DNA of 64,000 nt. Origin: a virus (lineage: Duplodnaviria; Heunggongvirae; Uroviricota; Caudoviricetes). A model generated the notes under the pieces. The model had not been told where the DNA came from and did not search any database. It saw only the letters and a list, made by a program, of their open reading frames with translations. Position numbers and translations under genes: made by a program. The DNA is taken from the IMG/VR virus record IMGVR_UViG_2660238580_000002. One strand, 5' to 3'. Shown in pieces: positions 1,285 through 39,790 of this stretch (its first letter is position 1; every line of letters begins with the position of its first letter).

Positions 1285-1345
1285 AATTCACAGGTGTTTT
1301 TTCCCATCCTGTGGTTTCCTTGGCGTTTTCGGTAATGACTCCAAC

Positions 1346-3080: not shown

Positions 3081-3396
3081 TATAATAAACTTACTTTTTT
3101 ATCATTTTTCCACTTTAACAACATTTTGCTCCACTTTTCCACGACCAAACAACTTGAAATCTGGTTAAAATAACACGTAACACTATTCTTCTTCCTTGAG
3201 TCCGCCCGGAACTCGAAAAACAAACCGAGTTAAAGCCATTTTTCACAAAATCGATTTTGGGTCTCACCAAAATTACGGGGTTGCATACGCATTCGTTTAT
3301 TTTCGAACGTGTACATACAAATATGCACAAAAATAATCAAAATTATTTTCTGAGATGCATTATGATATGAACACCAATTTCGTATAGAGTCTCACT

Positions 3397-7600: not shown

Positions 7601-7683
7601 CGTTTTGCTTTCAGCTGGATTGTGCAGTTCTGTACCGGTTTTCCTGTGCCGTCTTTCAGTACACCTGAAATTTTTACTGCCAT
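4660..7683 (-). CDS. stf: side tail fiber protein Stf
   Basis: ~1007 aa from [18 protein letters not shown] (lambda Stf N-terminus); long Ala/Ser/Thr-rich central region; C-terminal GAHTHS repeats. Confidence 0.9.
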
Positions 7684-7690
7684 ATTCACC

Positions 7691-20157: not shown

Positions 20158-20946
20158 TTACGCCAGTTGTACGGACACGAACGCATCAGGGTCAGCCAGC
20201 AGCATCAGCGGTGCTGACTGAATCATGGTGAACTCACGCGCCGGATCGCCGGTGGTCACCCAGTTTTTCGGGTAACGGGCAGAGGCGTTAATGCCTTCGC
20301 GCTGTGCGTCCGCATCCTGAATGCAGCCATAGGTGCGCAGACCGCGTGCCTGAGTGTTCCCCAGCACCATCGTGTTGTCCGGCAGGAAGTTCTTTTTGAC
20401 GCCGTTTTCCACGTACTGTCCGGAATACACGACGATGGCCACATCGCCATACATCCCCTTATAGGACACCGCTTTGCCCAGGTCTTTCACCGCTGTCTCC
20501 AGCTCGGAATTAGAGCCACGACGGGTATCCAGCTTCTCCTTGACGGCTTTGAAGGAACGGAACAGCGCCCAGCCTTTCGGATCGAACACGATGATATTCA
20601 CCACACCGCTGGCGTTCAGCGCGTAGGCTTCGATATCGTCGGTCGGGTCATACGTGGACTTGTCACGCTTGCTCCACTCCGTGCCGCCGGACTGCGTGAT
20701 GTTATTCTCCTCACTGCGGCCCATATCCACCTCAACCGGATCGAAGGCTTCACCGGTCATGGTGTATTTGCCCTTAAGCACGGCAGAAACTGCCTGCATC
20801 TCTTCGACCTGAGCAATGGCCAGCTCTTCGTCACGCATGTTCTGCATGATGATGCGACGGCGGCGGTAAGCCGGGTCCGCCAGATTCTGCGGATCTTCAT
20901 CCGGCAGGCGACGCAGGGTCATCTGCGGATTCACTTCATGCTTCGG
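20158..20946 (-). pseudogene. E: major capsid protein E, 3' fragment (codons ~82-341) cut off from its 5' part by island insertion
   Basis: Reads PKHEVNPQMTLRRLPDEDPQ...PDAFVSVQLA with no start codon; in-frame stop immediately upstream of PKH. Confidence 0.92.
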
Positions 20947-20948
20947 CT
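20939..20948. repeat. 10-bp direct repeat TGCTTCGGCT (island junction, putative att core)
   Basis: Identical 10-mer at 33376-33385; lies in E codons Lys-Pro-Lys-His. Confidence 0.8.
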
Positions 20949-21082
20949 ACATGAGTCAAATATGAAAGGATGTGAATGATTTGATTACGTTTTAGCTATA
21001 GAATTGAAATGGAAAATCCTTGAATGCAATACAACGTGCAATACATGGATGAAAACCATCACTCATTTAACAAGAGGAATCT

Positions 21083-21988
21083 ATGCGCTCACCCAACAGA
21101 ATGCATGAACGCTCAACATTTTATAAGTATATGTCGTTGAATACCGCGAAGATTGTTCTTGATTCATGCAGCCTTAGATGGAGTTCTCCGGTCCTATTTA
21201 ATGACCCTTTTGATGTTCCAAGAGAAGTTATGCCTGGTATTAACGAAATTAATATTGGCAAAGCTTTAGCCCGCAAGTTAATAGCGGAGTTGATTACCCC
21301 CAGAGAAGACATACAAAATTTAAACCCTAGAATTAGAACAATGCTAAGTGATTTCCAAAAGTCATTTCCTTTAGGCATACCCGCAGGATTAATTGAAAGA
21401 TTTCAAGAAATGGTAAACATTCCACCAGTTGGGATTGGCGCTCCTGCGGCAATACAAGAAATGAAAGATGTCTGGCGAGGAATGCTTAATAACAGAAGGA
21501 TTTTGTGTTTATCTGAGAGCCCTATAATCACTCCTATGTGGAATCACTATGCCGATAAATATAAAGGTATAGTTATCGAATTTGATTGTGTAGACTTTCT
21601 GGATAGCGCTTGGTTAATAGCCAAACCTATGAAATACACAGATAAAATGCCTCTAACTCACACTGCTGAAGGGATGGCCGAGTTGCTTTTCATGCCAGAC
21701 AATAAGTCAATTGAATATATCAATAATGAGATAATATTCATAAAAACAGAAGAATGGGCATATGAAAGAGAGTGGAGAATTTCAACCTACGCTAGGCCAA
21801 ATAGCACTGGTCAATATAGCGACTTAAAATTTCACCCTTTTGAGTTAAAATCTGTAATACTTGGTCCTCTTTTTGATGCCAGCGAGTTCGATGAAGTCGC
21901 ATCACTAGTTAAGATGTATCCAAGAGCGAAATTATTTAAAAGTTCATTTGGGAACGACAGAAAAATATCCATAGTACCACTACCTTAA
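21083..21988 (+). CDS. DUF2971-family protein
   Basis: 301 aa; N-terminal FYKYMSLNTAKIVLDSCSLRWSSPVLFNDPFD signature; GAGGA RBS upstream. Confidence 0.65.
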   Translation: MRSPNRMHERSTFYKYMSLNTAKIVLDSCSLRWSSPVLFNDPFDVPREVMPGINEINIGKALARKLIAELITPREDIQNLNPRIRTMLSDFQKSFPLGIPAGLIERFQEMVNIPPVGIGAPAAIQEMKDVWRGMLNNRRILCLSESPIITPMWNHYADKYKGIVIEFDCVDFLDSAWLIAKPMKYTDKMPLTHTAEGMAELLFMPDNKSIEYINNEIIFIKTEEWAYEREWRISTYARPNSTGQYSDLKFHPFELKSVILGPLFDASEFDEVASLVKMYPRAKLFKSSFGNDRKISIVPLP

Positions 21989-22094
21989 AAGGTCAAATGC
22001 TTTTGACAAATAAAATCTATCGCCAGTTTTACTGGCGACTTTTAAGCAACAAAGAACCACCTAAGCACTCTTCCTACCTATGGTTTCATTTGTT

Positions 22095-22646
22095 TTAACT
22101 TCGCTGATTATCCTTGATATACCTTTCAGCCATATCTGGAATGTTATCTGAGATCTGGTAAGCTCGAATAAATGCTTTACTGACCTCCATCTTAATGAAG
22201 TCCTGATACCGTTTTTCCATGCCAGGAAACTGTCGACAGATCGCAAGTGGAAGACTATCAATGATTGCTCCAACTTCCCCAGTTAATTTCGACAAGGCAT
22301 AAGTCGCAAATGCAGTGTCAATTACCTCACCTGTTTCGCTGGCATTCTTCAGTTCCTGTGCGTCGGCCTGCGCACGCGTAAGTCGATGGCGTTCGTACTC
22401 AATAGTCCCTGGCTGGAGATCTGCCTCGCTGGCCTGGCGCAGTTCTTCAACCTCCCGGCGCAGCTTTTCGTTCTCAATTTCAGCATCCCTTTCGGCATAC
22501 CATTTTATGACGGCGGCAGAGTCATAAAGCACCTCATTACCCTTGTCACCGCCTCGCAGAACGGGCATTCCCTGCTCCTGCTAGTTCTGAATGGTACGGA
22601 TACTCGCACCGAAAATGTCAGCCAGCTGCTTTTTGTTGGCTTCCAT
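22095..22646 (-). pseudogene. terminase small subunit Nu1-like gene with in-frame amber codon at codon 22
   Basis: MEANKKQLADIFGASIRTIQN-TAG-QEQGMPVL...; first ~100 aa near-identical to prophage Nu1, C-terminal ~80 aa divergent; TAG at 22581-22583 where helper has TGG. Confidence 0.8.
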
Positions 22647-22699
22647 TGTTCATTCCACGGACAAAACCAGAGAAAGGAAACGACAGAGGCCAAAAAGCC

Positions 22700-22860
22700 T
22701 GTTTTTAGCACCTGTCGTTTCCTTTCTTTTTAGGGGATGTTTTTAATAAAAACATTAAGTTACGGCGAAGAAGAACGGAAACGCCTTAAACAGGAAAATT
22801 TTCACAAATAGCGAAAACCCGCGCGCCTGACGCCCCGTAGCCTGTCAGATCGCCGGAAAG
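22700..22860 (-). other. island cos-like region (cosB-like, variant cosN 22824-22835, partial cosQ-side)
   Basis: Aligns base-by-base with prophage cos (39600-39790); 5 of 12 cosN positions differ (GGGCGTCAGGCG vs GGGCGGCGACCT). Confidence 0.7.
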
Positions 22861-22891
22861 GACCCGCCAGCCAGAGCGGGCCCTAATTTCA

Positions 22892-23275
22892 TCAACCAAT
22901 CAGCTTATAGCGACCATCCCGTGCATTGCGGCGTACACGCTCAATCTTGAGGCATAGCGCCGCATCTGGCTTTTTTGGGACAGGTACGCGGCAATATTCA
23001 GAAGCGCGAGGAATATTATTTATCCAGTCGATCACTTCACTTAAATACCAGGCCTTACGCCCTTCCGTAACCTGCACACGCTCCGGGAACTCTCCACTAG
23101 CCTCAAGGTTTAGCAGTGTACGCCGACTCAGGGTTGTAATTTCCATCACCTGATTCATATCAACAAGGCGCTCGCTTAAACACATTTTGTCAGCGATAGC
23201 TTTTAATTCCTCTACAGCTGGATTCGGGTACATCATTTCGGCAATTGGCTTAAGGTCATTGTAATCATTCTGCAT
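22892..23275 (-). CDS. AlpA/excisionase-family HTH protein
   Basis: 127-aa ORF; C-terminal half ITTLSRRTLLNLEASGEFPERVQVTEGRKAWYLSEVIDWI resembles AlpA-type HTH; true start may be internal. Confidence 0.5.
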   Translation of the reverse strand: MQNDYNDLKPIAEMMYPNPAVEELKAIADKMCLSERLVDMNQVMEITTLSRRTLLNLEASGEFPERVQVTEGRKAWYLSEVIDWINNIPRASEYCRVPVPKKPDAALCLKIERVRRNARDGRYKLIG

Positions 23276-23286
23276 TGTATCCCCCT

Positions 23287-23628
23287 TTACACACGAGCCA
23301 GCGGCTGAACAGAAATACCTGAGCCAACAAACGCTGCAATCTTTACTGACAGTTCTTTTACAGACTCAGGCCAGTTCAGAGCATCAACATTTAAGACACC
23401 TGTCTTATAGACCTGAGCCCGTGTTTTTTTCGCGGTGTCGATTTGTACAGCGGAAACATAAACCGCTTTACCTACGCTCGAACCATCCCATACCACCAGT
23501 GCACCTGTTGCATCTTCCTGCATCAGTGGCGTAAATGCAGGAATTACCCCTTTATTAGCTGAAAATATCCCCAGCGTAGTCACCAGTGCTTCAGTGCCAG
23601 CCATGAGTTCAGTGTAATGAGTAGCCAT
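23287..23628 (-). CDS. head decoration protein D homolog (island-encoded)
   Basis: 113 aa; shares PA-TPLM...VAWDG/VVWDG...YK-G...WPE...AF-G with lambda gpD. Confidence 0.6.
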   Translation of the reverse strand: MATHYTELMAGTEALVTTLGIFSANKGVIPAFTPLMQEDATGALVVWDGSSVGKAVYVSAVQIDTAKKTRAQVYKTGVLNVDALNWPESVKELSVKIAAFVGSGISVQPLARV

Positions 23629-23637
23629 TGCTCCCCC

Positions 23638-24678
23638 TTAGCCAATGCGAACGGTAACAAAACGATTGATGCGGGCCGGTATTGGCTGTGGTGCTGAATG
23701 TGTCTGCACATATTCAATAGCCGGATCACCAGGTACAATATAGTTTTTCGGTGCAAGTTCGGCTTTAGTCAGCCCCATTCGGATTAGCTCCGGATCCTGA
23801 ATACCGCCATAGGCGACAATCCCCTGAAGAGCCGTATTGCCAAGCACCATCAAATCAGGATCAAGGAAATGTTTTTCTGTTCCGTCCTCGTCGGTATAAC
23901 GCCCGCTGTAAACAACAATCGCAACATCGCCCATATACCCTTTAAAACTCACCGAATCACCAAGGTCTTTAAGGGCCGTTTCCAGTTCGGAATTAGAACC
24001 ACGACGGGTATCCAAAGCCTCTTTTATCGCTCTGAATGAACGGTATTTCTTCCATACATTACCACCCATAATGATGATATTAGTGACGCCCTCACTAAAT
24101 TCTGCGTAGCTCTCAATATCATCATTTGGATCAAAAGTTTCTTTATCCTTACTTGACCACTCAGTACCGCCAGACTGAGTGATGATATTTTGTGGTTTTA
24201 TATTCCAGTCCAGCTCATAACGTTCAATACCATCGCCCTCAATGATATTTTTCCCCGTTGTGATTGCCTGAACAGCAAGCCATTCAATACGTGCACGAAT
24301 AGCTTTAGCTTGATTTACAATCGCCTGTTTAACTTTAATATTACGCGCCCCAAAAGCATTGTATTGCTCAGGTGATACACCAGCAGGGCGCACAGCTAAC
24401 TTATTTGGATCAATGCTGCTTTTCGGCTTCATATAGCCTGGACGAATTGTTTTTGATTCGTACCCTTCGTCACGTGAAACTTTACTACCCACCATAGGAG
24501 AACAAAACGCTGCAATTGGGATATTTGGATCGTCGATTGTATCAAGAATAATATCGCGCGATTCAAACATTACCGAGCGAGTAAAAAACAAACTGGTAAA
24601 CAACGCATTTAGTTGTTTTTGTACATCTACAGCATTAACCACCTGTACAAGCTGGGTAGGCGAATATAAATCAACCAT
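23638..24678 (-). CDS. major capsid protein E homolog (island-encoded, diverged)
   Basis: 347 aa from MVDLYSPTQL (AAAGAGGA RBS); C-terminus ITQSGGTEWS...DTRRGSNSELETA...GDVAIVVYSG aligns with lambda gpE. Confidence 0.8.
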   Translation of the reverse strand: MVDLYSPTQLVQVVNAVDVQKQLNALFTSLFFTRSVMFESRDIILDTIDDPNIPIAAFCSPMVGSKVSRDEGYESKTIRPGYMKPKSSIDPNKLAVRPAGVSPEQYNAFGARNIKVKQAIVNQAKAIRARIEWLAVQAITTGKNIIEGDGIERYELDWNIKPQNIITQSGGTEWSSKDKETFDPNDDIESYAEFSEGVTNIIIMGGNVWKKYRSFRAIKEALDTRRGSNSELETALKDLGDSVSFKGYMGDVAIVVYSGRYTDEDGTEKHFLDPDLMVLGNTALQGIVAYGGIQDPELIRMGLTKAELAPKNYIVPGDPAIEYVQTHSAPQPIPARINRFVTVRIG

Positions 24679-24963
24679 ACACATCCTCTTTGCATTCATT
24701 AAAAATAATTGTGGATATATGCTATCACCAATATTTGTCATGCGAATACATGCAACCGAGTGCAATGTTGTATAAAGTTTTGGGATGACAACTTCAGCGC
24801 GGATAATTAGTGTTAATATATTCACTCCCTTTGGTCGGGATTTATGTAGCATGCCGGAAAATTTATTTTTTCCGGCCTTTTTTATTGGCAATATTTAAAA
24901 CGGAATATCATCTCCCCATTGCTCATTATCTCCCACTGGTGGATGGCTTCCTTGCTGATCTGC

Positions 24964-25344
24964 CTATTGTTTTGCTCTGTTCAGTGCGTCAGTAGCCTGA
25001 CCCTGTTGACCTTTTTTGCCGCCCGGTCGCACCGTTCGCGCACTGATTACGCTGTCTGCGATAACCTGCCAGCCCTGCCGCGTTTCACCGTTCTGTCCAG
25101 TCCACTGGCTCACCTGCATGTTACCCGCCACGCTCAGGAGTTCGCCTTTGTGATGCTTTGCCAGCGCATCGGCTTGTCTGCCAAACGCCAGCACAGATAA
25201 CCACATCGTCGCCGTTCCGTCATCTGCCTGGCTGCATGGCAAAGATACCGCCATCCGTGCCAGTGTCATGGGTGTTCCCTTGCTGGTATGTTTTACCTGT
25301 GGGTCGTCCACCAGCCGCCCGTAAGCTGCTATTTGCGCCGTCAT
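24964..25344 (-). CDS. single-stranded DNA-binding protein (OB-fold, SSB-like)
   Basis: 126 aa with SSB-like pattern GRLVDDPQV...WLSVLAFGRQAD...KGELLSVAGNMQVSQW. Confidence 0.6.
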   Translation of the reverse strand: MTAQIAAYGRLVDDPQVKHTSKGTPMTLARMAVSLPCSQADDGTATMWLSVLAFGRQADALAKHHKGELLSVAGNMQVSQWTGQNGETRQGWQVIADSVISARTVRPGGKKGQQGQATDALNRAKQ

Positions 25345-25355
25345 GCTGCCTGCTC

Positions 25356-25598
25356 TCAGGACTTAATATTGATGGTTGTCACTTCCTCCGCTTCGGCAAT
25401 CTCCCGTTCGGTCAGCGTGGCAAAGTTTGCAGCCGCCGTTGTCATGAATGCGCTTATCAGTTCGGGATGTGCTTTCGCGTATCCTTCCCCGGCGTTGCGG
25501 TCTATTGCCTTAATCGCCACCCTTAGCCAGTGTTCAGCCATATCAAGGGCGCGGTAATGTGGCTTTATATGTTTGTTCAGTTTTCCTGATGTGTGCAT
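25356..25598 (-). CDS. hypothetical protein
   Basis: 80-aa ORF immediately downstream of iteron region. Confidence 0.4.
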   Translation of the reverse strand: MHTSGKLNKHIKPHYRALDMAEHWLRVAIKAIDRNAGEGYAKAHPELISAFMTTAAANFATLTEREIAEAEEVTTINIKS

Positions 25599-25643
25599 TT
25601 TTATTTTTACCCCCTCGTTTAAAAAGTTTTTTGTGCACCACCA

Positions 25644-25876
25644 CCTTGTCTACCTTGTCTACCTGATTAGTTATCAGGCCAGTAATGGCGCGGGTTTCAG
25701 AGAGGTAGACAGCCCCAAATAGCTGTCTACCTCATCTCTACCCGTCTCCTTACCTGTCTACAAAAATGGGTAGATAAGGTAGATAACAGGTAGACAGTGA
25801 AAAATAGTTATCTACCTGCATTAATACATTGAAATAAAAGTATTTTATTTCAGTCAGGTAGACAAGGTAGATAACC
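25644..25876. repeat. iteron cluster (GGTAGACA/GGTAGATA and complement TGTCTACC), putative island replication origin
   Basis: More than 10 copies of an 8-11 bp motif in both orientations, AT-rich, directly upstream of primase gene. Confidence 0.75.
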
Positions 25877-25887
25877 ATTGCCATTTT

Positions 25888-27639
25888 TTATAAAAACGCA
25901 TCGCAATCATCAGTAGTCGTTGCGTTGGTCTGAGTGACTCCCTTAACTTTTCGCGTAATATATTCATATCCGTAAACTTTCGCCGCTGACCTCATAGCCT
26001 TTCCGAACTCATTCACGCTCAAACATTTCCCCTTTCCTGTATATGCCATGAAGGCCATATAGACACGGTAAAGGCTGTTTCTGGTCGTGTACTTCACGGT
26101 GTCACCACCACCGCCCATCATTAGCCCACGAGCTTCCTCCAGAAACTCCAGCGCCGCGCAAAGCTCAACAACCGGATCCGTTTGCTGCTTTATTGCCAGA
26201 GCTTCATCACCGTCACGCTGTTCCAGTAATAAAGCCCGTGCCTTTTCAGGGTCAGCAAAATTAGCCAGCAAGCGGCGGATAATTACGGGGATTTCTGCCG
26301 CTATCTTTTCCGGTAATTCCTTGTCTTTTTCGTCCTCCCTTACAATGTTGTCGAACCGGAAAATCACCCGACGGCGTGACACACCTCCGGCCCGTTCGGT
26401 AAAGATCATCGGGTCGTTATTGGTTGCCAGTACCACCGCCCTTATTATCGTCGTGAATCGCTTCTCATATTTCGGGTTAATTTCAACGGGATCGCCTCCC
26501 GTGATTTTCTTGATGCCCGTGCCTTCCCCCGTATATTTCGGCTGATCGGCAAGGACGATAAGACGACTCCCGACAACCTGCGCGCGCCCTCCTGCATCAT
26601 CGAGTGATGTCATCTCTGCGCTTACGGTGTTCTGTTTGCCAGCAAGCAGGGTGGCAATATGAGTAAATGTGCTCTTTCCGCTTCCCCCGTCTCCGGTGGC
26701 CTCAATGAACATCTGCCAGTCGTAGCGGTTCGCCATAATCATGTATAACGCGGCACATATACGCATCATCTTGCGCGGGTCTTTTCCTGCAGCATGTTCA
26801 AGCCATTTATGGAAATTTGGCGCATTATCGCGGATGTTTTCCCCTGCTACTGGTGGCGTGTACTCAATACCATTGTGCGTGGTGCTCCAGTGCTCCGGCG
26901 AGTGCGGAGAAAATTCCCCCGTTTTCAGATTAAGCACACCATTAGTGAACGGTAGCAAATCACCGGACGGCTCCCCCATGGGGGCGGCAATAACTTTTAA
27001 CGCTTCCACGGCGTTATTGATTACGCGCTTGCTGAACGTGGCCCTGTGCTCTGAATAGATCGCCACCATTTCGCGGCTCAGCTCCATTGTGCTGACCGGA
27101 CACCATACCCCGCCGCGCCATACGTGGACGATTTCACTTTCTGCATGAACACAAACACCATCAAAGCGATCGGCAAGTAGTTGTGCCCGCTCACTGTCTG
27201 CCATCTGTGAAAGTTGCGCCTTTTGCTTCGTCGGAAGATTAAGCACCAGGCTTTCCCCACGCTCGCATTCCTCTTTGAGTCGCGGCAACTGGTCGGATAA
27301 ATCCACTGGGCTGGTGTCAGTAATCCCCGCGTATTCGTGTACGGTCTTCACTCCAGCCACAGCCAGTAACGTAACAATCTGCGTCATGCTGTGCTCTGTG
27401 ATATGTCCTGCGCGGTAAACACGCACACACTGACGATCTTCATCAATGATCCGGTAATCGGTGATGTTTTTCAGTTGCTCATCAGCCAACACGACAGGCG
27501 GCACATCGTCGGCGGCAATATGTTTACCCGCCCATTCCTGCCACTCTTTCGCATGGCTCCACGCATCACTACCTGCAAAGATGATTACCTCTGTCAGTCT
27601 GTCGCGTGGCTGTTTTTTTAAGTTCGGTGCCAGTTTCAT
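25888..27639 (-). CDS. P4-family primase/helicase (Pri-Rep-like replication protein)
   Basis: 583 aa; Walker A GDGGSGKST in C-terminal NTPase domain; adjacent to iterons. Confidence 0.75.
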   Translation of the reverse strand: MKLAPNLKKQPRDRLTEVIIFAGSDAWSHAKEWQEWAGKHIAADDVPPVVLADEQLKNITDYRIIDEDRQCVRVYRAGHITEHSMTQIVTLLAVAGVKTVHEYAGITDTSPVDLSDQLPRLKEECERGESLVLNLPTKQKAQLSQMADSERAQLLADRFDGVCVHAESEIVHVWRGGVWCPVSTMELSREMVAIYSEHRATFSKRVINNAVEALKVIAAPMGEPSGDLLPFTNGVLNLKTGEFSPHSPEHWSTTHNGIEYTPPVAGENIRDNAPNFHKWLEHAAGKDPRKMMRICAALYMIMANRYDWQMFIEATGDGGSGKSTFTHIATLLAGKQNTVSAEMTSLDDAGGRAQVVGSRLIVLADQPKYTGEGTGIKKITGGDPVEINPKYEKRFTTIIRAVVLATNNDPMIFTERAGGVSRRRVIFRFDNIVREDEKDKELPEKIAAEIPVIIRRLLANFADPEKARALLLEQRDGDEALAIKQQTDPVVELCAALEFLEEARGLMMGGGGDTVKYTTRNSLYRVYMAFMAYTGKGKCLSVNEFGKAMRSAAKVYGYEYITRKVKGVTQTNATTTDDCDAFL

Positions 27640-27935
27640 TTTTTGCCCCTGAATGCGTTAATCATGCTTTTCATTTTCTGGATGTTTCCCCGCGCTTTTT
27701 CCCTGCTGATGGGCTTACTGCGGGGTGCGGCATATACCAGGGAAAAATCACGCCGGAACTGATAAACAGGCATCACGCAGTCATAGCTATACCCCTCACG
27801 ACGGTAAGTGATGCGCCGTTCTGCCACGCCTTTAATCGTTACCGTGCCGCCGTATTTATCGCGGTAAATATCGCCGTTCATAAATTCAGGCCGAGCGGGG
27901 CCGCTGGCAATAAAGCCAGAATTTTTCATTTCCAT
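27636..27935 (-). CDS. hypothetical protein
   Basis: 99-aa ORF, stop overlaps primase start. Confidence 0.4.
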   Translation of the reverse strand: MEMKNSGFIASGPARPEFMNGDIYRDKYGGTVTIKGVAERRITYRREGYSYDCVMPVYQFRRDFSLVYAAPRSKPISREKARGNIQKMKSMINAFRGKK

Positions 27936-27952
27936 ATTATTTATTCCTCGAC

Positions 27953-28174
27953 TTAACTCGACTTATTTGATAGCAGGGCACTATTTATTGCGTCATTGAG
28001 TTTTTCTGCTGCTTCATCAATAAGTGACAACAGGCCATAAGCAATATTTGCATCTTCATTGTCATTTATGCAATCAAGCCACATATTTAATATTGCTTTT
28101 GCTGAATTATTTAAAGTTAATGAACTTTCTGCACATGCTAACAATTTAAAAAAGACTTCCCGTTCTGTATTCAT
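27953..28174 (-). CDS. hypothetical protein
   Basis: 73-aa ORF in island early region. Confidence 0.35.
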   Translation of the reverse strand: MNTEREVFFKLLACAESSLTLNNSAKAILNMWLDCINDNEDANIAYGLLSLIDEAAEKLNDAINSALLSNKSS

Positions 28175-28366
28175 TTAATCCCCCACCAGCTTACTTTCTT
28201 CCTCAATCAAAAAACTAGCGACACTTCCCGAAAGACGCGCCAGTAGGCTCGCCAGTGCGGATATATCAGCATCTGTAATTTTGTTCGGGTATACCTCAAG
28301 AAGGCGGCAAATAATTTCTGTCTGGTGCGCACGTTCAGCGGCTTCGTGTAATGTGATTTCCTGCAT
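28175..28366 (-). CDS. hypothetical protein
   Basis: 63-aa ORF in island early region. Confidence 0.35.
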   Translation of the reverse strand: MQEITLHEAAERAHQTEIICRLLEVYPNKITDADISALASLLARLSGSVASFLIEEESKLVGD

Positions 28367-28600
28367 TAATGCACCTCTTTTAATTCATACACTGCTGAAA
28401 TAATGACTTGTGATAAGCCATATTCTGATGATTCGCTTCTCACCGCAGCAATAGCCGTCTGAACATTAACAGCCTTCACGTTCTGAGCGATACCAATTGT
28501 GTGGCCTAGTGGGTTAACCGCACGAGCAAATACACGGAAGGTTTTAAGCACGGCATACTGAACCGCCCCGGGTTTCCTGGAGAGTGTTTTATCTGTGAAC

Positions 28601-29491
28601 TCAGGCTGCCAGATCATCGTTTCCGATGGAAGCATAATAAGCTTTTTCTGCTTCTGCCGGAGGAGTATGGCCCAGCCTTTCCAGCAATCGTCGATTGTTA
28701 TACCAGTCCACCCACGTGAGTGTGGCCAGTTCCACTTCTGCACGGTTTTTCCAGCTCTTACGGTGTATTACCTCCGCTTTGTAAAGACCATTGATGCTCT
28801 CCGCCATCGCGTTGTCATACGAGTCGCCTGTACTTCCTGTTGATGCCAGTAATCCGGCTTCCTTAAGCCGCTGTGTGTAGGCCAGCGATACATACTGAGA
28901 ACCTTTATCACTGTGATGGACCGTGCCGGACGGTCGACGGGCCCATAACGCCTGCTCCAGTGCATCCAGCACGAATGTCGTTTCCATGGACGATGAGACC
29001 CGCCACCCCACGATGTATCCGGCAAACACATCAATGATGAACGCCACATAGACGAAGCCCCGCCATGTGCTGACGTAAGTAAAATCAGCCACCCACAGCT
29101 GGTCAGGTCGTTCTGCCACGAACTGACGGTTTACGCGGTCGCCTGCGGCAACGGCTTTCCGGCTGATGGTCGTACGGACCTTTTTACCCCGGAGAACACC
29201 GGCAAGTCCCATAACCGCCATGAGACGTGCCACAGTGCATCTGGCCACTCTGATACCTTCCCGTAACAACTGACGCCAGACTTTACGCACACCGTATACC
29301 TTGTGATTTTCATCGTATACGCGCTGTATCTCTTTCTTCAGCCAGTCATCGCGCTGCGCACGGGCACTGCGTTTATCCGGATGATGTCGCTGTTGCTGAC
29401 AGTGGTAATACGTTGACGGGGCAATATGCAGTTCGCTGCATAGCGGTCCGACCCCGTACTGCTCACGCAGCTTATCCAGCAGTGGCATCAT
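28601..29491 (-). CDS. IS629 transposase OrfB (DDE integrase core)
   Basis: 296 aa, identical to copy at 61767-62657. Confidence 0.9.
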
Positions 29492-29814
29492 TTTTTCCAG
29501 AGGCGGTCGAACTCCGCCTTCGCAAAATAAGCGGAAGCCTGGCGAAGGATATCGTTACTGCGGCGCAGTTCACGATTTTCACGTTCCAGCTCTTTCAGAC
29601 GCTGACGTTCAGCGGTGGTGAGCCCTCCATCACCGCCCCCGGTATCCCGCTCATGCTGGCGAACCCAGACACGCAGAGTCTCCGGCGTACAGCCAATCTT
29701 TGGAGCAATGGAACAAATTGTCGCCCATTGTGAGTCATATTCGCTCTGACTTTCCAGAACCATACGGACTGCCCGTTGACGGACTTCGGGGGAAAAACGA
29801 GTATTTTTAGTCAT
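29488..29814 (-). CDS. IS629 transposase OrfA (HTH)
   Basis: 108 aa [30 protein letters not shown]. Confidence 0.9.
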
Positions 29815-29868
29815 CCTGTTTACCTCTTTCTCAGGAAGTTTAGTCTCCAGGATTCCCGGGGCGGTTCA

Positions 29869-30060
29869 TACCTCCTGACGAATACGGGCGGCAAATATCA
29901 TCACGCAGCCAGTTGGGGATTGTTGGCGGGCTTCCTGTTCGCTGGCGGCCTCGATGTGTATTACGCGTGGTTGTGCGGTGCTCAGGGCGATAAAACGCCA
30001 GATGTATTTATTCAGGTTGTGCGGGTCCCGCCCTTGCGGGTGTGTGGTATGATTTCTCAT
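29869..30060 (-). CDS. Icd-like cell division inhibitor family protein, 3' end truncated by IS629
   Basis: YIWRFIALSTAQPRVIHIEAASEQEARQQS...IFAARI resembles Icd-like small proteins; reading past the IS predicts loss of only 3 codons. Confidence 0.45.
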
Positions 30061-30198
30061 AGCTATCTCGATACTGTTGCTATCGTTGGTGGTTAGAAGC
30101 CCGTTGGTGTTCCTAGCGCCTTCGGGCTTTGCTTTTTTAAGTGCCTCCGTGTTAAGGTGGTCACCTAACAGTAAAAAGGCTAATTCAATAGGTGGTCA

Positions 30199-30391
30199 CT
30201 TGTCAACAATCAAACGCGATAAAAGTCCTAAGGGTGATGGGCAATCTCCACAATTCAGAATGCGAATTTCTCCAGAGCTAAAAGAGCAATTCGACAAAGA
30301 AGCGCAGAGCGACGGCATAAGCCTAGCCAACTGGCTTAAAGAATTAGGGCGCAAAGAGCTGCTACGGCGCGGTATTGAACCAAAAGGATAA
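30199..30391 (+). CDS. ribbon-helix-helix (Arc/CopG-like) DNA-binding protein
   Basis: C-terminal ISPELKEQFDKEAQSDGISLANWLKELGRKELL RHH pattern; start uncertain (TTG at 30199 with AGGTGG SD, or ATG at 30260). Confidence 0.5.
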
Positions 30392-30418
30392 GAGTAATTG
30401 AAGTCAAGGAGCTAACAC

Positions 30419-30775
30419 ATGAAATACGAATTCTTCGCAACAAGTAGCAGTAGTTTGGATGTATACATAGTCACTGTATCAAACGATTCTAGCTCGCTAA
30501 TCATGACTTGCAATTGTCCAGCAGGAAGTAAAGGTATTCTATGTAGACACCGTAAAGCTTTAATTACCGGAAAAATCCGTGGTATATTCACTCCCCCAAG
30601 AAGGAATAATCCCGAAAAGTTACAAGAAGCTATAAATTTAATAACCACATATGGCATAGATAAAACATTAAAGTTGTACACTGATGAGTTAGAACGAGCA
30701 GAACAGACTTGGATAAGTGTTCGCGATAATTTGAGAGCAATGATAAACGCTCTTGTTGAACCACCTAAATATTGA
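30419..30775 (+). CDS. small SWIM-type zinc-finger protein
   Basis: 118 aa with CNCPAGSKGILCRH (CxC...CxH); AAGGAG RBS upstream. Confidence 0.5.
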   Translation: MKYEFFATSSSSLDVYIVTVSNDSSSLIMTCNCPAGSKGILCRHRKALITGKIRGIFTPPRRNNPEKLQEAINLITTYGIDKTLKLYTDELERAEQTWISVRDNLRAMINALVEPPKY

Positions 30776-30906
30776 ACTGTTCACATTGCCTATCAGTCGA
30801 CAACCTCGTATTCTGATTAAGGCTAACTATATACTCACATTGGCGACCAATTCTGGTCGCCTTTATCCACCATTTTTATAACATCATAGATTAAAAGTGT
30901 TAATCC

Positions 30907-31737
30907 TTACCCCCTGAATGGAATTGATGAGGATTTAATTTCCACTGAACTAAATCCTTTTGAATCCAAGAACATTTTTATACCAGCCTCAATGAAATCA
31001 TAATCGTTTGTCGGGCCAATAGTAATACTTTTAATTGGTAACTTCCTATGATCTTTATTACCAATGATGATATAAGGGATGACACCATTATTATTTATTC
31101 TGAATTGCACATCTGGTATTAGTATGCGCGGAGTAAATACCAATCTAAATTCATTTTCTTCGATAAAACTAGGATGTTTAAAAAATGGGATGTATTTAGA
31201 TATAAATTGATACGTAGAGGCCATTGTTACAAAATGATCATTCTTTTCTTTAATATTAATACCATTACAAGAAAAAAACGCCCCCAACTCCTTACTCATC
31301 TTAGTAACATCGTTATTATTTGAATATATAACATCATGTGCAACACAATTTAAATAAATATTTTGAGAAAAGCTCACAAGTTCATCCGCATCAAACTCAA
31401 TGCAAACACCCTGTTTATTTCCGTAACCTCTCCACTGACTTAACTTATCGTTTTCCTTACAAAAAGAGATGCTATAAACATGTTTATCAATCCCTTTTTC
31501 TTTTTGTAACCTCCCTTTCTCATACATGTCAAGAGACTTGAGCAAAATAGTTTTCTTATCTTTTGGAATGATATTGTCATCAACTATTTTAATTGTATTT
31601 CGAAAGCATTCACATCCATGGTTAGACTCCTCTTTATCATTTAAGAAATATATGTTTGTAGCCCATAAAGAATTAGAGTCTAATATACCTTTCAAACCAA
31701 AAAGATCTGTATAATGAAATATAGCCACAATGCCCAC
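30907..31737 (-). CDS. DUF2971-like protein
   Basis: 276 aa; N-terminal IFHYTDLFGLKGILDSNSLWATNIYFLNDKEE resembles DUF2971 signature. Confidence 0.5.
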   Translation of the reverse strand: MGIVAIFHYTDLFGLKGILDSNSLWATNIYFLNDKEESNHGCECFRNTIKIVDDNIIPKDKKTILLKSLDMYEKGRLQKEKGIDKHVYSISFCKENDKLSQWRGYGNKQGVCIEFDADELVSFSQNIYLNCVAHDVIYSNNNDVTKMSKELGAFFSCNGINIKEKNDHFVTMASTYQFISKYIPFFKHPSFIEENEFRLVFTPRILIPDVQFRINNNGVIPYIIIGNKDHRKLPIKSITIGPTNDYDFIEAGIKMFLDSKGFSSVEIKSSSIPFRG

Positions 31738-31744
31738 CTAATAG

Positions 31745-31975
31745 TTAAGTTGTTTCCCACTCACCTCGAATCCATGCCTGCACTTCTGAAAGACGATATG
31801 CAACAGCAGTGGAACCAATCTTGATCCGCTTAGGAAATTTTCCTTCCTTCTCCAGCTTCCAGCGTGTGCTGTTCGCAAGAGTGGTTAGCTCCCGACATTC
31901 TTTCTCACGGATCATTCGGTCAATGTTAGGAATGTACTCCAGACCCTTTTTATCAACAATTGCCATTTTTTTCAT
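31745..31975 (-). CDS. alpA: AlpA-family transcriptional regulator
   Basis: 76 aa; TTLANSTRWKLEKEGKFPKRIKIGSTAVAYRLSEVQAWI AlpA-type HTH; immediately downstream of int. Confidence 0.75.
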   Translation of the reverse strand: MKKMAIVDKKGLEYIPNIDRMIREKECRELTTLANSTRWKLEKEGKFPKRIKIGSTAVAYRLSEVQAWIRGEWETT

Positions 31976-31976
31976 G

Positions 31977-33212
31977 TTAACCAGCCTTTTGTTTGAGGAT
32001 TGTCACTTTTGAATCAGCACCTGCGATGCTATTGAGATATGTAGTCCAGAGTTCCAGAGCATCCAGTTTTTTAGCCATAAACTTACTCCGGTTGTAAACA
32101 CCTGCCACGCCAGGTAGCGCATGGCCTAACAGTTGTTCTACTACATAAAATTCAACACCGAGATCACTTAGATGAGTAGATAGCGTTCTTCTAAGGTCGT
32201 GTAGTGACCATTGTTTTTCATGGCCCAAACGTTTACCGATTTTCCCCCCAATCTTGCTTACGCTTTCTCTAATTCGCAGACTTCCCAGCACATAACCAGT
32301 ATGTTTTGTCTCTTCGTGAACATCCGTTACCCACTGTCGTAGAATTTCAGGTACTGGTCTGACGATTTCAACACCGGTTTTTGAGTGTTCTTTTGGTACA
32401 GTCCAAACCCAACTTTCTAGATCCCATTCGCTCCATTCTGATAATCGGGCTTCACTCATTCGACATCCAAATACTGTACAAAGCACAAACATTTTTCGCG
32501 TGTATTCAGACATTAGTTTTAAATCAGGCTCGACAAAAATTGCCTTCCAGAGCTGGCCCAGTTCGGCTTCATCCAGAACCCGATCCCGCTTACCTGCAAT
32601 CTGCCCCACATCACTCATGCGCAAATCCTTTAAAGCATCACACGTCGCGTACTGGCGTACCCGACAAAAACGAAGAGCTAATTTAGTGTCAGAAAAAACA
32701 TACGCCGCCATAACTGGTGCATTACGTTTAATTCGGTCAAAACAGTCCAGCCATTCATATAGGTGAGTGTCATTTACGGGCAAATGACCGATATAGGGAA
32801 AGATATGCTTTCGAAATCTGCCAAGCGTTACAGCATGAGTTTTACGACGCACCTTACAGTAATTTTCATACCAGTAATTTAGTGCATCCTCCACTGTGAC
32901 CGGCTTTAAGCGTTCTTCAGCCTGAATCTTAATCTGGATACGCGGATCACGTTTGTCAGCCAACCAACCACGGCACTCGTCGCGCTTTTCTCTTGCCTGT
33001 TTGAGTGACATATCAGGATATTTACCCAACGTTAGCCAGACCGGAGCAGCCCGGCCACCTGCTAACCTGTAGAAGAAAACAAAGCTCACAGCCCCCTTAG
33101 TACTCACACGAATAGAAAGCCCCTTTCCATCAGCAATGGTGATCTGCTTTTCTCTGGGTTTCCCCAGATATCCTTTAAGCGCTTTGTCGCTCAGTTTGTT
33201 CTCGCCAGCCAT
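31977..33212 (-). CDS. int: P4-type tyrosine integrase
   Basis: Start MAGENKL; DUF4102-like arm domain; catalytic residues R (CRMSEARL), HDLRRT, Y (VAGVYNRS); adjacent to junction repeat. Confidence 0.9.
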   Translation of the reverse strand: MAGENKLSDKALKGYLGKPREKQITIADGKGLSIRVSTKGAVSFVFFYRLAGGRAAPVWLTLGKYPDMSLKQAREKRDECRGWLADKRDPRIQIKIQAEERLKPVTVEDALNYWYENYCKVRRKTHAVTLGRFRKHIFPYIGHLPVNDTHLYEWLDCFDRIKRNAPVMAAYVFSDTKLALRFCRVRQYATCDALKDLRMSDVGQIAGKRDRVLDEAELGQLWKAIFVEPDLKLMSEYTRKMFVLCTVFGCRMSEARLSEWSEWDLESWVWTVPKEHSKTGVEIVRPVPEILRQWVTDVHEETKHTGYVLGSLRIRESVSKIGGKIGKRLGHEKQWSLHDLRRTLSTHLSDLGVEFYVVEQLLGHALPGVAGVYNRSKFMAKKLDALELWTTYLNSIAGADSKVTILKQKAG

Positions 33213-33344
33213 TTTTAGCCCCAAAAAGCAATACAAGCTGCAATACAGAGATGATTGCAACACACAGATAACGAGGAAAATCCAGTGAAAGCGCCAGATA
33301 ATCTTATTCTTTATTATCAAAGAATTAAGTGTAAAAACCAGCAA

Positions 33345-33620
33345 CTACACGAAAGCCTCAGAAAGCCATGCTAAGTGCTTCGGCTTGACATATCCCGGCG
33401 TAAATTCAGAGGTGGAGCCGCCACGGGAACGGATAACCTCACCGGAAACAATCGGCGAAACGTACAGCGCCATGTTTACCAGTCCCGGAATTTGTGAGAG
33501 ATAGACTTTCTCCGTGGTGAAGGGATAGCTCTCACGGAAAAAGAGACACAGAAACAGCGGATCAAACTTAAATTTCTGCTCATTTGCCGCCAGCAGTTGG
33601 GCGGTTGTGTACATCGACAT
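33345..33620 (-). pseudogene. E: major capsid protein E, 5' fragment (codons 1-~83) fused to 9 island-derived codons
   Basis: MSMYTTAQLLAANEQKFKFDPLFL...EFTPGYVKPKH then LAWLSEAFV-stop from island sequence. Confidence 0.92.
33376..33385. repeat. 10-bp direct repeat TGCTTCGGCT (island junction, putative att core)
   Basis: Identical to 20939-20948; overlaps E codons Lys-Pro-Lys-His of the 5' fragment. Confidence 0.8.
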
Positions 33621-37119: not shown

Positions 37120-37123
<4 letters not shown>

Positions 37124-39045
37124 TCATCCTCTCCGGATAAGGCACGGGCGTAATCTGCCAGTGTTTTCTTGTTGGTTGCTGCACCATCCTCTTCCTGCAG
37201 GCTCGCCAGCAGTGCACTGAGATCCAGCTGCCAGCGGGAAATACTGATGCGCAGCGCCGCCAGCGCATAAACGAAGCAGTCGAGTGCCTCATTGCGTCGC
37301 TTTTTGCTGTCCCACAGTATTTTTTTCCTGCCATCCACCCATTTTTCGACCTGCTCTTCAGCAGTCAGCTGCTGCGCTTCGGTCAGATCAAAAATATCCG
37401 GGTTATTCGGGAAGTGAACGGCACCGGGAAGCGGTTCATCCCCTTCCGGCGTCAGTGTGAAGCGGTTATAAATCTGCTCTTTCGCGGTATCCGTACCGAT
37501 TTCGGTAAGGTAAACCCCGTTTTTGTTTCGCTTACGTGGCATGCTGGCCACCGGCTTTCCGTAGACGGATGCCCCTTTAATGGGGATCACCCGGAACAGC
37601 CCATGTTTTTTCGAGCGTTCATACACAATGGTCGGGTCAATCCCGCCAGTATCCCAGCAGATACGGGATACCGACATTTCTGCACCATTCCGGCGGGTAT
37701 AGGTTTTATTGATGGCCTCATCCACACGCAGCAGCGTCTGTTCATCGTCGTGGCGACCCATAATAATCTGCCGGTCAATCAGCCAGCTTTCCTCACCCGG
37801 CCCCCATCCCCATACGCGCATTTCGTAGCGGTCCAGCTGGGAGTCGATACCGGCGGTCAGGTAAGCCACACGGTCAGGAACGGGCGCTGAATAATGCTCT
37901 TTCCGCTCCGCCATCACCTCAGCATCCGGACGTTCGCCGATTTTCGCTTCCCATGTCTCACCGAGCGTGGTGTTCACGAAGGTTTTACGTTTTCCCGTAT
38001 CCCCTTTCGTCTTCATCCAGTCTTTGACAATCTGCACCCAGGTGGTGAACGGGCTGTACGCCGTCCAGATGTGAAAGGTCACACTGTCCGGCGGCTCAAT
38101 CTCTTCACCGGATGACGAAAACCAGAGAATGCCATCACGGGTCCAGATCCCGGTCTTTTCGCAGATATAACGGGCATCAGTAAAGTCCAGCTCCTGCTGG
38201 CGGATGACGCAGGCATTATGCTCGCAGAGATAAAACACGCTGGAGGGGTCATCCGGCGTCCATTTGAGGCCAAACGGCGTCTCTTTGTCGCCAAATTTAA
38301 GATACTGCTCCTCCCCGCAGTGCGGGCAGGCAACATGAAAACGCATAAAATGCAGGGATTCACTGGCTGCACGCTCAATCTGGCAGGTGCCTCTCACTTT
38401 GGGCGTGGAGCCACGGATGGACTTTGGCCAGACCGAGCCTTCAATACGTTTGTCGCCAAGGAACGTCGGAGAGCCTTCCTGTTCAATATCCTCATCAAAG
38501 GCAGCAAGTTCATCATAACCCGCCACATCCACCGACTTTTCACGGTAGTTTTTTGCCGCTTTACCGCCCAGGCACCAGAAGCCACGACCATTGGAAAAAC
38601 GCTTCATAGTGAGCGTGTTATCCCGGTGCTTTTTGCCATACCACGGAGCCAGCGCCAGCAGCGACGGAATATCGCGGATGGTCGGCTCAACGTGGGTTTT
38701 CATAAAGTTCTCGGCATCACCATCCGTCGGCAACCAGATAAGGGTGTTGCGCTGCTTATGCTCTATAAAGTAGGCATAAACACCCAGCAGCATTTTGGAA
38801 TAACCGACACGGGCAGACTTCACCACATTCACCTCACGGATGTAGTCGCTGCCCATCGCATTCATGATGGCCCGCTGAAAGGGCAGTGTTTCCCAGCGCC
38901 CTTCCTGGTATGCGGATTCTTTCGGGAGATAGTAATTAGCATCCGCCCATTCAACGGCGGTCTGTGGCTCCGGCCTGAACAGTGAGCGAAGCCCGGCGCG
39001 GACAAAATGCCGCAGCCTGTTAACCTGACTGTTCGATATATTCAC
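37120..39045 (-). CDS. A: terminase large subunit A
   Basis: 641 aa; 1926 nt equals lambda A. Confidence 0.93.
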
Positions 39046-39565
39046 TCAGCAACCCCGGTATCAGTTCATCCAGCGCGGCTGCTTTGTTCATGGCTTTGAT
39101 GATATCCCGTTTCAGGAAATCAACATGTCGGTTTTCCAGTTCCGGAAAACGCCGCTGCACCGACAGGGGGATCCCGTCGAGAATACTGGCAATTTCACCT
39201 GCGATCCGCGACAGCACGAAAGTACAGAATGCGGTTTCCACCACTTCAGCGGAGTCTCTGGCATTTTTCAGCTCCTGTGCGTCGGCCTGCGCACGCGTAA
39301 GTCGATGGCGTTCGTACTCAATAGTCCCTGGCTGGAGATCTGTCTCGCTGGCCTGCCGCAGTTCTTCAACTTCCCGGCGCAGCTTTTCGTTCTCAATTTC
39401 AGCATCCCTTTCGGCATACCATCTTATAACGGCGGCAGAGTCATAAAGCACCTCATTACCCTTGCCACCGCCTCGCAGAACGGGCATTCCCTGTTCCTGC
39501 CAGTTCTGAATGGTACGGATACTCGCACCGAAAATGTCAGCCAGCTGCTTTTTGTTGACTTCCAT
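39020..39565 (-). CDS. Nu1: terminase small subunit Nu1
   Basis: 181 aa MEVNKKQLADIFGASIRTIQNWQEQGMPVLRGGGKGNEV; 546 nt equals lambda Nu1. Confidence 0.93.
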   Translation of the reverse strand: MEVNKKQLADIFGASIRTIQNWQEQGMPVLRGGGKGNEVLYDSAAVIRWYAERDAEIENEKLRREVEELRQASETDLQPGTIEYERHRLTRAQADAQELKNARDSAEVVETAFCTFVLSRIAGEIASILDGIPLSVQRRFPELENRHVDFLKRDIIKAMNKAAALDELIPGLLSEYIEQSG

Positions 39566-39599
39566 TGTTCATTCCACGGCCAAAAACAGAGAAAGGAAA

Positions 39600-39790
39600 C
39601 GACAGAGGCCCAAAAGCTCGTTTTCAGCACCTGTCGTTTCCTTTCTTTTCAGGGGGTATTTTAAATAAAAACATTAAGTTACGACGAAGAAGAACGGAAA
39701 TGCCTTAAACCGGAAAATTTTCATAAATAGCGAAAACCCGCGAGGTCGCCGCCCCGTAACCTGTCGGATCACCGGAAAGGACCCGTAAAG
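39600..39790 (-). other. prophage cos site (cosB, cosN at 39743-39754, cosQ)
   Basis: Contains AGGTCGCCGCCC (reverse complement of lambda cohesive end GGGCGGCGACCT) followed by CGTAACCTGTCGGATCACCGGAAAGGACCCGT. Confidence 0.85.

Follow-up and report, generated by a model that had tools for sequence, protein, structure and literature searches.

A satellite island within a lambdoid prophage capsid gene carries a helper-type cos region and a chimeric small terminase gene with an in-frame amber codon

Introduction

Helper-embedded PICIs (HE-PICIs) integrate into late genes of prophages, in the same orientation as those genes and with a short identity block at each flank (Tommasini, Mageeney and Williams 2023, PMC10111431). 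Their genes are arranged in zones, which are, in order, integration (tyrosine integrase and HTH/AlpA), Bro/dynamic, replication (primase and SSB), and late (capsid and others). Their integrases form a single clade that targets prophage late genes, and 201 such elements have been reported in gene E (PMC10111431). One element, 11capE, shares a 258-bp, 90%-identical segment with its helper at the position of lambda cos and was stated to be without terS. Virions of the 11capE helper could not be detected in the original study (PMC10111431).

The cohesive-end site that such islands share with lambda-like phages is known to vary. Base pairs 7 to 12 of cosN differ naturally in N15, phiD326, and Gifsy-1, and changes at these positions had no measurable effect on cleavage by lambda TerL (Feiss et al. 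2015, PMC4669245). The conserved part of cosN is the CG pairs that flank the nicks, and its left half is regarded as constrained. A 2-nt mismatch between ends caused an about fourfold loss of yield (PMC4669245).

Here we describe an island in a 64,000-nucleotide stretch of viral DNA (IMG/VR record IMGVR_UViG_2660238580_000002), which we refer to as the window. A first-pass annotation of the window had drawn attention to a cos region and a Nu1-like gene that resemble those of the adjoining prophage. We propose, with a probability of roughly 0.7, that this segment is the packaging module of a HE-PICI, with a helper-type cos that would be used by the helper terminase and a terS gene that is probably dispensable and decaying.

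Results

The island extends over 20949..33385 on the minus strand and is a HE-PICI of the 11capE type, as judged from Pfam matches, PGAP annotation of the copy in strain LST200A, mapping of the split capsid gene, and the published class. It is 12,437 bp long, with a 1,310-bp IS counted in, and this 12.4-kb insert interrupts the lambda-E-like major capsid gene of a lambdoid prophage. The intact E gene of a related phage maps to window positions 33620-33376 (codons 1 to 82) and 20946-20158 (the remainder). The attL core, AGCCGAAGCA (33376..33385, minus strand), lies within the N-terminal fragment of helper gene E (33376-33620) and matches the 10-bp identity block of 11capE. The attR core, also AGCCGAAGCA (20939..20948, minus strand), is at the start of the C-terminal fragment (20158-20946). 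Joining the two E fragments across one 10-bp core gave an open 341-aa protein that is identical to an intact lambda-like E at 335 of 341 residues. The insertion in late gene E, its co-orientation with that gene, and the short identity block on both sides are the features described for HE-PICIs whose target is E:Phage_cap_E. The first-pass annotation had missed that the island sits in its helper's own capsid gene and that it belongs to a class already in the literature (PMC10111431).

The gene content points the same way. On the minus strand, the order is int, HTH, DUF2971, Icd-like, primase, SSB (broken), E-like capsid, D-like decoration, AlpA-like, cos, and terS (broken), and the second DUF2971 gene of the island is on the plus strand. 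Pfam matches were to Phage_integrase and Arm-DNA-bind_3, a D5_N/DUF5906 primase, SSB, Phage_cap_E, HDPD, and Phage_AlpA. Annotated copies of the island have the same gene order, and Pfam content and the order in those copies together reproduce the four-zone arrangement of HE-PICIs. The IS is an IS3-family insertion of 1,310 bp (28559..29868, minus strand) in the early region. It is missing from the island of E. coli LST200A, which is otherwise 99.98% identical to that of the window. The window copy has a broken SSB gene as well as the IS. We assign the island to the published 11capE class of HE-PICIs; its integrase was compared for domain content and for target site, which is identical.

The prophage that surrounds the island has a complete set of terminase genes (37120..39565, minus strand), consisting of Nu1 (39020-39565; 181 aa) and gpA/TerL (37120-39045; 641 aa). 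Its cosB is at 39566-39742, and its cosN is the lambda allele, GGGCGGCGACCT (39743..39754, minus strand). The first-pass annotation had described a base-by-base match between the island and the 5' part of the prophage Nu1 gene together with cos, and our alignment bears this out. Window positions 22309-22866 align with 39228-39785 without a gap, and 514 of 558 positions are identical (92.1%). The aligned stretch takes in Nu1 codons 1 to ~110, cosB, and cosN, and it continues for 31 bp on the cosQ side. That last cosQ-side segment (22836..22866, minus strand) is where helper homology ends, and the sequence is island specific from 22867.

The island cosB (22647..22823, minus strand) is of the lambda type, as judged from the ungapped helper alignment, an inverted repeat, and its spacing. 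Its R3 is AGGCGTTTCCGTTCTT, at 22771-22786, which we take to match the R3 sequence of lambda. In lambda, R3 is at bp 50-65 (PMC9026076). The R2 and R1 sequences of the island are the inverted arms within 22671-22727 (inverted repeat I1), and the distance from cosN to the ATG is 189 nt in both island and helper. The island has, then, the lambda-type layout of cosQ, cosN, and cosB (R3, I1, R2, R1), an IHF region included, at lambda spacing, with the CG pairs kept. Polymorphisms in cosB and the 5' half of Nu1 are common to islands and helpers, which indicates ongoing or repeated exchange between them in the cos region.

The Nu1-like gene of the island (22095..22646, minus strand) is a pseudogene in the window, and its intact allele encodes 183 aa. 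The intact protein matched Pfam family PF07471 at an E value of 6e-84 over profile positions 1-162 of 164, so it belongs to the Nu1 family. Residues 1-98 are identical to lambda TerS (chain 6hn7_B) at 97 of 98 positions. The last ~80 aa are strongly diverged, as the first-pass annotation had observed, with about 40% identity to the helper Nu1. One explanation for such divergence is erosion of a copy of the helper gene, but a search with the C-terminal 93 aa does not support it. This search returned proteins annotated as "terminase small subunit" from Citrobacter and Klebsiella at 70-73% identity. The Citrobacter homologue is encoded in a chromosomal PICI, where its gene directly follows the capsid, decoration, and AlpA genes and a cos whose cosB is private. 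The 3' half of the island terS is 71% identical to the gene for that TerS in DNA and 73% in protein, whereas the Citrobacter protein has a different N terminus, MAKSCKIGVTAFDKWGV...

A four-way protein alignment located the boundary between the two parts. All four proteins share AQADAQELKNA at the place (22309-22340) where the identity with helper DNA drops sharply, and the mosaic junction (22309..22340, minus strand) is directly after this conserved motif, with helper-like sequence on the right (5' part) and satellite-type sequence on the left (3' part). We read residues 1 to ~105 as lambda Nu1 (DNA binding and dimerisation) and residues ~106-183 as the C-terminal domain of a satellite-type TerS. 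By the domain map of lambda (PMC9026076), the satellite-type half would contain the TerL-binding domain. The C terminus belongs to a separate satellite-type TerS lineage, and therefore the gene is a recombinant rather than a worn copy of the helper gene.

In the window, the reading frame that starts at the ATG at 22646 encounters TAG at 22581-22583 (codon 22), where the helper has TGG (Trp22), so there is no full-length open reading frame. The first-pass annotation had reported this codon and had named Met27 as the next start, and both points hold. The ATG of Met27 is at 22566-22568, and the open reading frame from it (22095-22568; 157 aa) runs to the natural stop. We surveyed 5,426 complete E. 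coli genomes with the 3' part of terS (22095-22330) as the query. This satellite-specific part was present in 32 of the 5,426, always at 99.6% identity or more, a level at which dN/dS is not measurable for the satellite-type half. Over 22520-22680, 2 genomes were identical to the window and 15 more were identical to the allele of 382634_2f, which has the same TAG and differs from the window at codon 34 only. The TAG is present in 17 of the 32 cassette genomes (53%), and terS is intact in the other 15.

The same TAG was found in at least eight independent assemblies (among them L001, L130, L143, L144, L153, L212, and H2). In LST200A, 382634_2f, and 99RCEF, PGAP treats the gene as a pseudogene and labels it "internal stop", and the 183-aa frame is open in EC21Z-147, 95-3322, and ECA64. 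Islands with the TAG are located in at least three helper prophages: one at the Qin locus, one that carries cif, and one that is DLP12-like with iss. Because the stop is in 17 of 32 genomes and in at least three helpers, we consider it real, heritable, and fairly old. A sequencing error, which the first-pass annotation had named as a danger to its own proposal, is excluded by the independent assemblies and the 17 complete genomes. More broadly, an error of sequencing or assembly at the TAG, or its suppression so that full-length TerS is made, has almost no chance of being the right explanation. TAG is one base away from TGG, and we found nothing else in favor of this idea. No tRNA gene that might encode an amber suppressor was found within the window, and strong amber suppressors are not expected in natural isolates.

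A heritable stop might still allow a shorter product. A nonsense allele at 53% in diverse strains could mean that a truncated protein is useful, and the sequence AGGAG, created by a synonymous change, is 6 nt upstream of the Met27 codon. A TerS made from Met27 to residue 183 would lack the helix-turn-helix, and it might poison the helper terminase by binding TerL or by co-oligomerising with Nu1. The 157-aa frame open to the natural stop and the presence of the TAG allele in 17 of 32 genomes are compatible with this. However, we rejected AGGAG as a restart signal designed together with the TAG, because the AGGAG variant is also in intact alleles (L145, L146, L148, and L202) and so predates the stop. 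In addition, TAG alleles have acquired extra nonsynonymous changes (the window allele has G34D, and F140L and E144G are in others) and no synonymous change in the same part, which fits relaxed constraint, although the numbers are small. Expression of the short protein is hypothetical, and we judge this explanation to be very unlikely.

Sister islands place the chimeric gene in a wider context. Between AlpA and a point 29 bp past cosN, a stretch that includes cosQ and cosN, the window island is 99.4% identical to sister island L134, and beyond that point the two are unrelated until the helper E fragment. The cosQ side is likewise 99.4% identical among sister islands, whatever the sequence to the right of cosN. 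To the right of cosN, then, the islands carry a swappable cassette. In many E. coli sister islands, the same place is occupied by a gene for a 180-aa TerS relative (MKLHLMNKKNMAKSC...; MKLHLMNKKNMAKSCRVSATAFDKWGV...) next to a non-lambda cosB. This 180-aa protein had no match in the PDB at an E value of 1 or less. We found no DNA homology between its gene and the 3' half of the window terS, and homology between the islands stops 29 bp past cosN. The kinship of the window terS to the E. coli satellite TerS shows at the protein level only, and its likeness in DNA is with the Citrobacter gene. A satellite TerS of private specificity, for which both the DNA-binding domain and the recognition site are distinct from those of the helper, is a property of these sister islands and not of the window island.

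We then sorted 97 IMG/VR islands that have the satellite-type left flank by their right-hand cassettes. A private cosB with a satellite TerS was present in 52, and 3 had a non-lambda cosB and no terS. A lambda-type cosB without terS was found in 33, of which 5 keep a Nu1 stub of ~13 codons. Another 8 had a lambda-type cosB with the chimeric terS, 3 of them with the TAG, and 1 had a lambda-type cosB on a contig too short for classing. Thus, 33 of the 42 islands with a lambda-type cosB have no terS. Loss of terS is usual with a helper-type cosB, as expected if the helper Nu1 serves that cosB directly.

These data also bear on whether the chimeric TerS, where intact, works to redirect packaging. 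Such a protein would bind the shared cosB through its lambda DNA-binding domain, recruit the helper TerL through its satellite C terminus, and compete with Nu1, and the window copy would have lost this function. The open 183-aa frame in 15 of 32 genomes shows that the gene is not obviously useless. Its satellite-type C-terminal domain is conserved across PICIs of E. coli, Citrobacter, and Klebsiella, and a satellite TerS is a known strategy in SaPIs. However, a helper-type DNA-binding domain acting on a helper-type cosB would have no basis to distinguish the DNA of the island from that of the helper. Moreover, terS is missing from most islands that have a lambda-type cosB, and the spread of the TAG allele is no poorer than that of the intact allele. 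We therefore think that a redirection device is unlikely. We infer that terS is dispensable in the window lineage and decaying on its way to complete loss, because the helper Nu1 would already recognise the island cosB. The first-pass annotation had weighed a packaging-interference or redirection device against a simple decaying copy. For the gene, decay is the part that survives, given the pseudogene annotation, the broken SSB gene, the IS, and the loss of terS in sister islands. A special device at cosN does not survive.

The island cosN (22824..22835, minus strand) was located by the alignment and by the conserved CG dinucleotides that flank both nick positions, and its predicted 12-nt cohesive end is GGGCGTCAGGCG. 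In the lambda orientation, with slashes at the nicks, the island reads ...CTACG/GGGCGTCAGGCG/CGCGGGTTTTCGC... and the prophage reads ...TTACG/GGGCGGCGACCT/CGCGGGTTTTCGC... The island keeps the nick contexts ACG/GGG...GCG/CGC. Its 12-mer differs from that of the helper at positions 6, 8, 9, 10, and 12. The first-pass annotation had counted these five differences correctly but had assigned all of them to one half-site, and position 6 is in the left half.

To place these differences among others in the region, we compared 10 unique island sequences with 49 unique phage-type sequences of the lambda allele, column by column. Of 546 aligned columns, 129 were polymorphic. Columns in which the two groups share no base were confined to the five cosN positions and six at the mosaic end of the gene. 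Because the five cosN positions are among so few such columns, the cluster is not ordinary scatter. All 10 unique islands with the chimeric terS have GGGCGTCAGGCG, and all seven helpers of composites (six fetched genomes and the window) have GGGCGGCGACCT.

One interpretation was that the island cosN is a mutated helper copy private to the island. We rejected this because the same 12-mer is at the cos of four phage-type contigs (L124, L129, L137, and L142), which have a phage right arm upstream and Nu1 and gpA downstream. Their gpA is 98.7-100% identical to that of the window helper, either with differences at 8 of 641 residues, as in L137, or with identity over the part available. There is also a third cosN allele, GGGCGGAAGGCG, in lambda-like and 21-like phage backgrounds, and one phage with it has a gpA that differs from that of the window helper at 2 of 641 residues. 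Among these proteins, we found no co-variation of TerL with the cosN allele, as none of the gpA differences (2-8 of 641 residues) is specific to an allele. Therefore, an "altered" cosN that calls for a special device, as proposed in the first-pass annotation, is not needed to explain a 12-mer that lambda-like phages use with nearly the TerL of the helper. A literature search for the GGGCGTCAGGCG and GGGCGGCGACCT 12-mers returned unrelated papers only. Since both CG pairs are kept, changes of this kind are tolerated in published work, and phages with GGGCGTCAGGCG exist, we regard the island cosN as a working natural minority allele that lambda-type TerL would accept. Position 6 (G to T) is a point against this reading, because it is in the half that is considered constrained.

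The cosN allele is not distributed at random with respect to cosB. Among the 97 IMG/VR islands, those with a lambda-type cosB had GGGCGTCAGGCG in 42 of 42 cases and the lambda cosN allele in 0 of 42, whereas islands with a non-lambda cosB had the lambda cosN allele in 40 of 55. The association gave a Fisher p value of 5e-15, or 5e-7 on unique 230-bp haplotypes, with the qualification that the islands are related. No island combines a lambda cosB with a lambda cosN. This may reflect ancestry together with a barrier to conversion, or a complete second copy of the helper cos within the genome of that helper may be selected against.

The second of these would mean that private cohesive ends are selected, such that islands that copy the helper cosB keep another cosN and never carry a complete cos duplicate. 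GGGCGTCAGGCG ends are predicted to match island ends only, so a molecule with one end from an island cos and the other from a helper cos could not circularise. This is compatible with use of the island cos by the helper terminase. It would account for the split between the two cosB types, for the seven of seven composites in which the lambda allele is that of the helper and the other is that of the island, and for the exchange with helpers of polymorphisms on both flanks of cosN but not of cosN itself. The fourfold cost of even a 2-nt end mismatch (PMC4669245) also speaks for it. On the other hand, the islands are related, and one recombination event in a common ancestor may account for the association. 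Gene-conversion tracts would be stopped by five mismatches within 12 bp, which is a neutral barrier, and cosN is just 31 bp from the end of homology. Furthermore, phages with GGGCGTCAGGCG exist, and the cos of an island embedded in one of them would not differ from that of its helper. The fitness mechanism is hypothetical, and we consider selected private ends to be unlikely.

A more general form of this idea is also unlikely. It states that selection acts on embedded satellites that copy the helper cosB to retain a 12-nt cutting site unlike that of the helper, so that ends are incompatible and two fully equivalent cos sites never coexist, whereas a satellite that has its own TerS and a private cosB would not need a different cosN. 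A weaker variant of it is that the HTH-less TerS of the amber allele interferes with the helper terminase.

Discussion

The reading that we prefer is a HE-PICI packaging module in which the helper terminase would act on the island's helper-type cos while terS decays. It starts from the position and borders of the island, the helper-type cos, the chimeric terS broken by the TAG, and a helper with complete Nu1 and gpA. The steps of the proposed mechanism are modeled on the behavior of 11capE and EcCICFT073. After induction, the island would excise and thereby restore gene E, and it would replicate from its own primase and origin. Helper Nu1 and IHF would then bind the island cosB, and helper gpA would nick the island cosN. 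Multimers of about four 11.1-kb units would fill phage-sized heads. Four such units amount to 44.5 kb, and four units with the IS amount to 49.7 kb. The larger figure is still within the packaging range of lambda.

Our analysis adds detail to a published class and opens no new one. Some HE-PICIs in the capsid gene carry a terS recombined from the helper Nu1 and a satellite TerS, and this chimeric gene is repeatedly lost once the satellite has the helper cosB. Lambda-like phages, like their satellites, vary in cohesive-end sequence, and TerL is nearly identical throughout. The association between cosB type and cosN allele is the sole lead here that might repay experiments. If the missing combination reflects selection, it would give new insight into how a satellite embedded in its helper escapes being cut along with it.

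The closest described system is the HE-PICI Eco567.11capE of E. coli NRG857c (PMC10111431). It occupies the same site in E, is roughly 11 kb long, and shares the 10-bp att core and the late-gene co-orientation. Its gene order is the same (int, HTH, replication, its own E-like and D-like genes, and AlpA), and its cos segment is about 90% identical to that of its helper. However, Eco567.11capE was described without terS, whereas the sub-lineage of the window keeps a chimeric Nu1-family terS, which is broken in the window. The window copy also differs in having the IS and a broken SSB gene. The paper on Eco567.11capE is silent on the cosN allele.

Natural variation of cosN in N15, phiD326, and Gifsy-1 resembles that of the island in that the flanking CG pairs are conserved, and lambda TerL is indifferent to such changes. 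However, those phages have two or three changes, and the island has five, with position 6 included. The chimeric gene has a parallel in the lambda-21 hybrid TerS (chimeric Nu1/gp1), which, as cited in PMC9026076, likewise has N- and C-terminal halves from two lineages joined in a conserved middle. In the island, the two lineages are those of a helper phage and of a satellite, and the product is not known to be functional.

EcCICFT073 and its Rpp protein (Fillol-Salom et al. 2018, 2019; PMC6092414, PMC6739421) represent another Gram-negative PICI with capsid, decoration, and AlpA genes. Its cos is likewise just upstream of a TerS-related gene, and it depends on the lambda-type terminase of a helper. 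However, the logic is opposite. Rpp islands keep a helper-like cosQ and cosN and have a private cosB that is read by an Rpp-TerS heterodimer, whereas the window island keeps cosB and differs in cosN. Rpp is 144-153 aa long and works with a cosB that lacks the phage R sequences, whereas the window gene is a 183-aa Nu1 homologue beside a lambda-type cosB. We considered Rpp-type redirection for the window gene and rejected it, as RppC (chain 6hlk_A) matched at an E value of 0.04 over 49 residues of the DNA-binding domain.

The TerS proteins of SaPIs, which are pac-type staphylococcal islands, are also satellite small terminases that use the helper TerL. A private specificity of the SaPI kind does not apply to the window TerS, because its DNA-binding domain and cosB are both those of the helper. 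With the specificity domain of the helper, it would not redirect packaging by site recognition. It is the sister islands, with their 180-aa satellite TerS and private cosB, that look like a cos-type counterpart of the SaPI scheme.

Association of cosB type with cosN allele

We compared islands from two ranges of IMG/VR loci (L147-L226 and L123-L142), chosen by the flank CTGGCTGGCGGGTCCTTTCC, for their terminase-binding site (cosB) and their 12-nt cohesive-end site (cosN). All 42 islands with a lambda-type cosB in this set had GGGCGTCAGGCG, the cosN allele of the window's island, and none (0/42) had GGGCGGCGACCT, the lambda allele that the window's helper prophage carries. The lambda allele was found in 40 of the 55 islands with a non-lambda cosB, and 52 of these 55 had a satellite small terminase (TerS). 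The cosN allele and the cosB type are strongly associated among the islands. Either ancestry or selection could be the source of this association, and the data fit both.

Phages have further cohesive-end alleles. A third allele, GGGCGGAAGGCG, was present in lambda-like and phage-21-like prophages (IMG/VR phage contigs L023, L075, and L005), one of which encodes a large terminase (TerL) with only 2 differences from that of the window over 641 residues. Other, less common alleles (GGGCGGCAGACG, GGGCGGCTGACG, GGGCGGCGACCG, and GGGCGACGACCT) were each seen a single time.

Probable exchange between the cosB/Nu1 repeats

Five IMG/VR loci (L159 and four similar ones) have a lambda-type cosB and no terS, yet an ORF occupies the start position of Nu1, the small terminase gene. 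Its product begins MEVNKDQLADI and diverges thereafter, so that the ORF resembles the remnant of a Nu1-type gene that has been deleted. We also compared window positions 22340-22820 with 39260-39740, together with L002 and L143-L146. Across cosB and the first ~100 Nu1 codons, islands and helper prophages had polymorphic sites in common, in a patchwork pattern. These regions are direct repeats ~16-17 kb apart within the composite of island and helper, and the patchwork suggests repeated gene conversion between them.

Other island genes and repeated sequences

The island interrupts the helper's capsid gene E and brings its own lambda-E-like capsid and D-like decoration genes (23287-24891, minus strand). 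The E-like protein is 346 aa as annotated, and the open frame reaches a TTG start that would make it 417 aa. A DUF2971 gene lies at each end of the island, one after terS on the opposite strand (21083-21988, plus) and the other at 30907-31737 (minus). The two genes encode different proteins and may serve as cargo or in defence.

A 1,310-bp IS3-family element (orfA, 108 aa; orfB, 296 aa) occurs twice, at 28559-29868 and 61725-63034, with 100% identity between the copies. One copy is inserted in the early region of the island, close to the Icd-like gene. Separately, the large tail-fibre ORF (4660-7689) contains two 107-nt direct repeats (6070-6308) that are 77% identical and 132 nt apart.

The SSB gene (24895-25344, minus strand) is the second broken gene of the island: its reading frame of 149 codons ends early, at a stop after codon 126. 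PGAP labels the island SSB gene of E. coli strain LST200A "internal stop," and the LST200A island lacks the IS3-family copy but is otherwise identical to that of the window.
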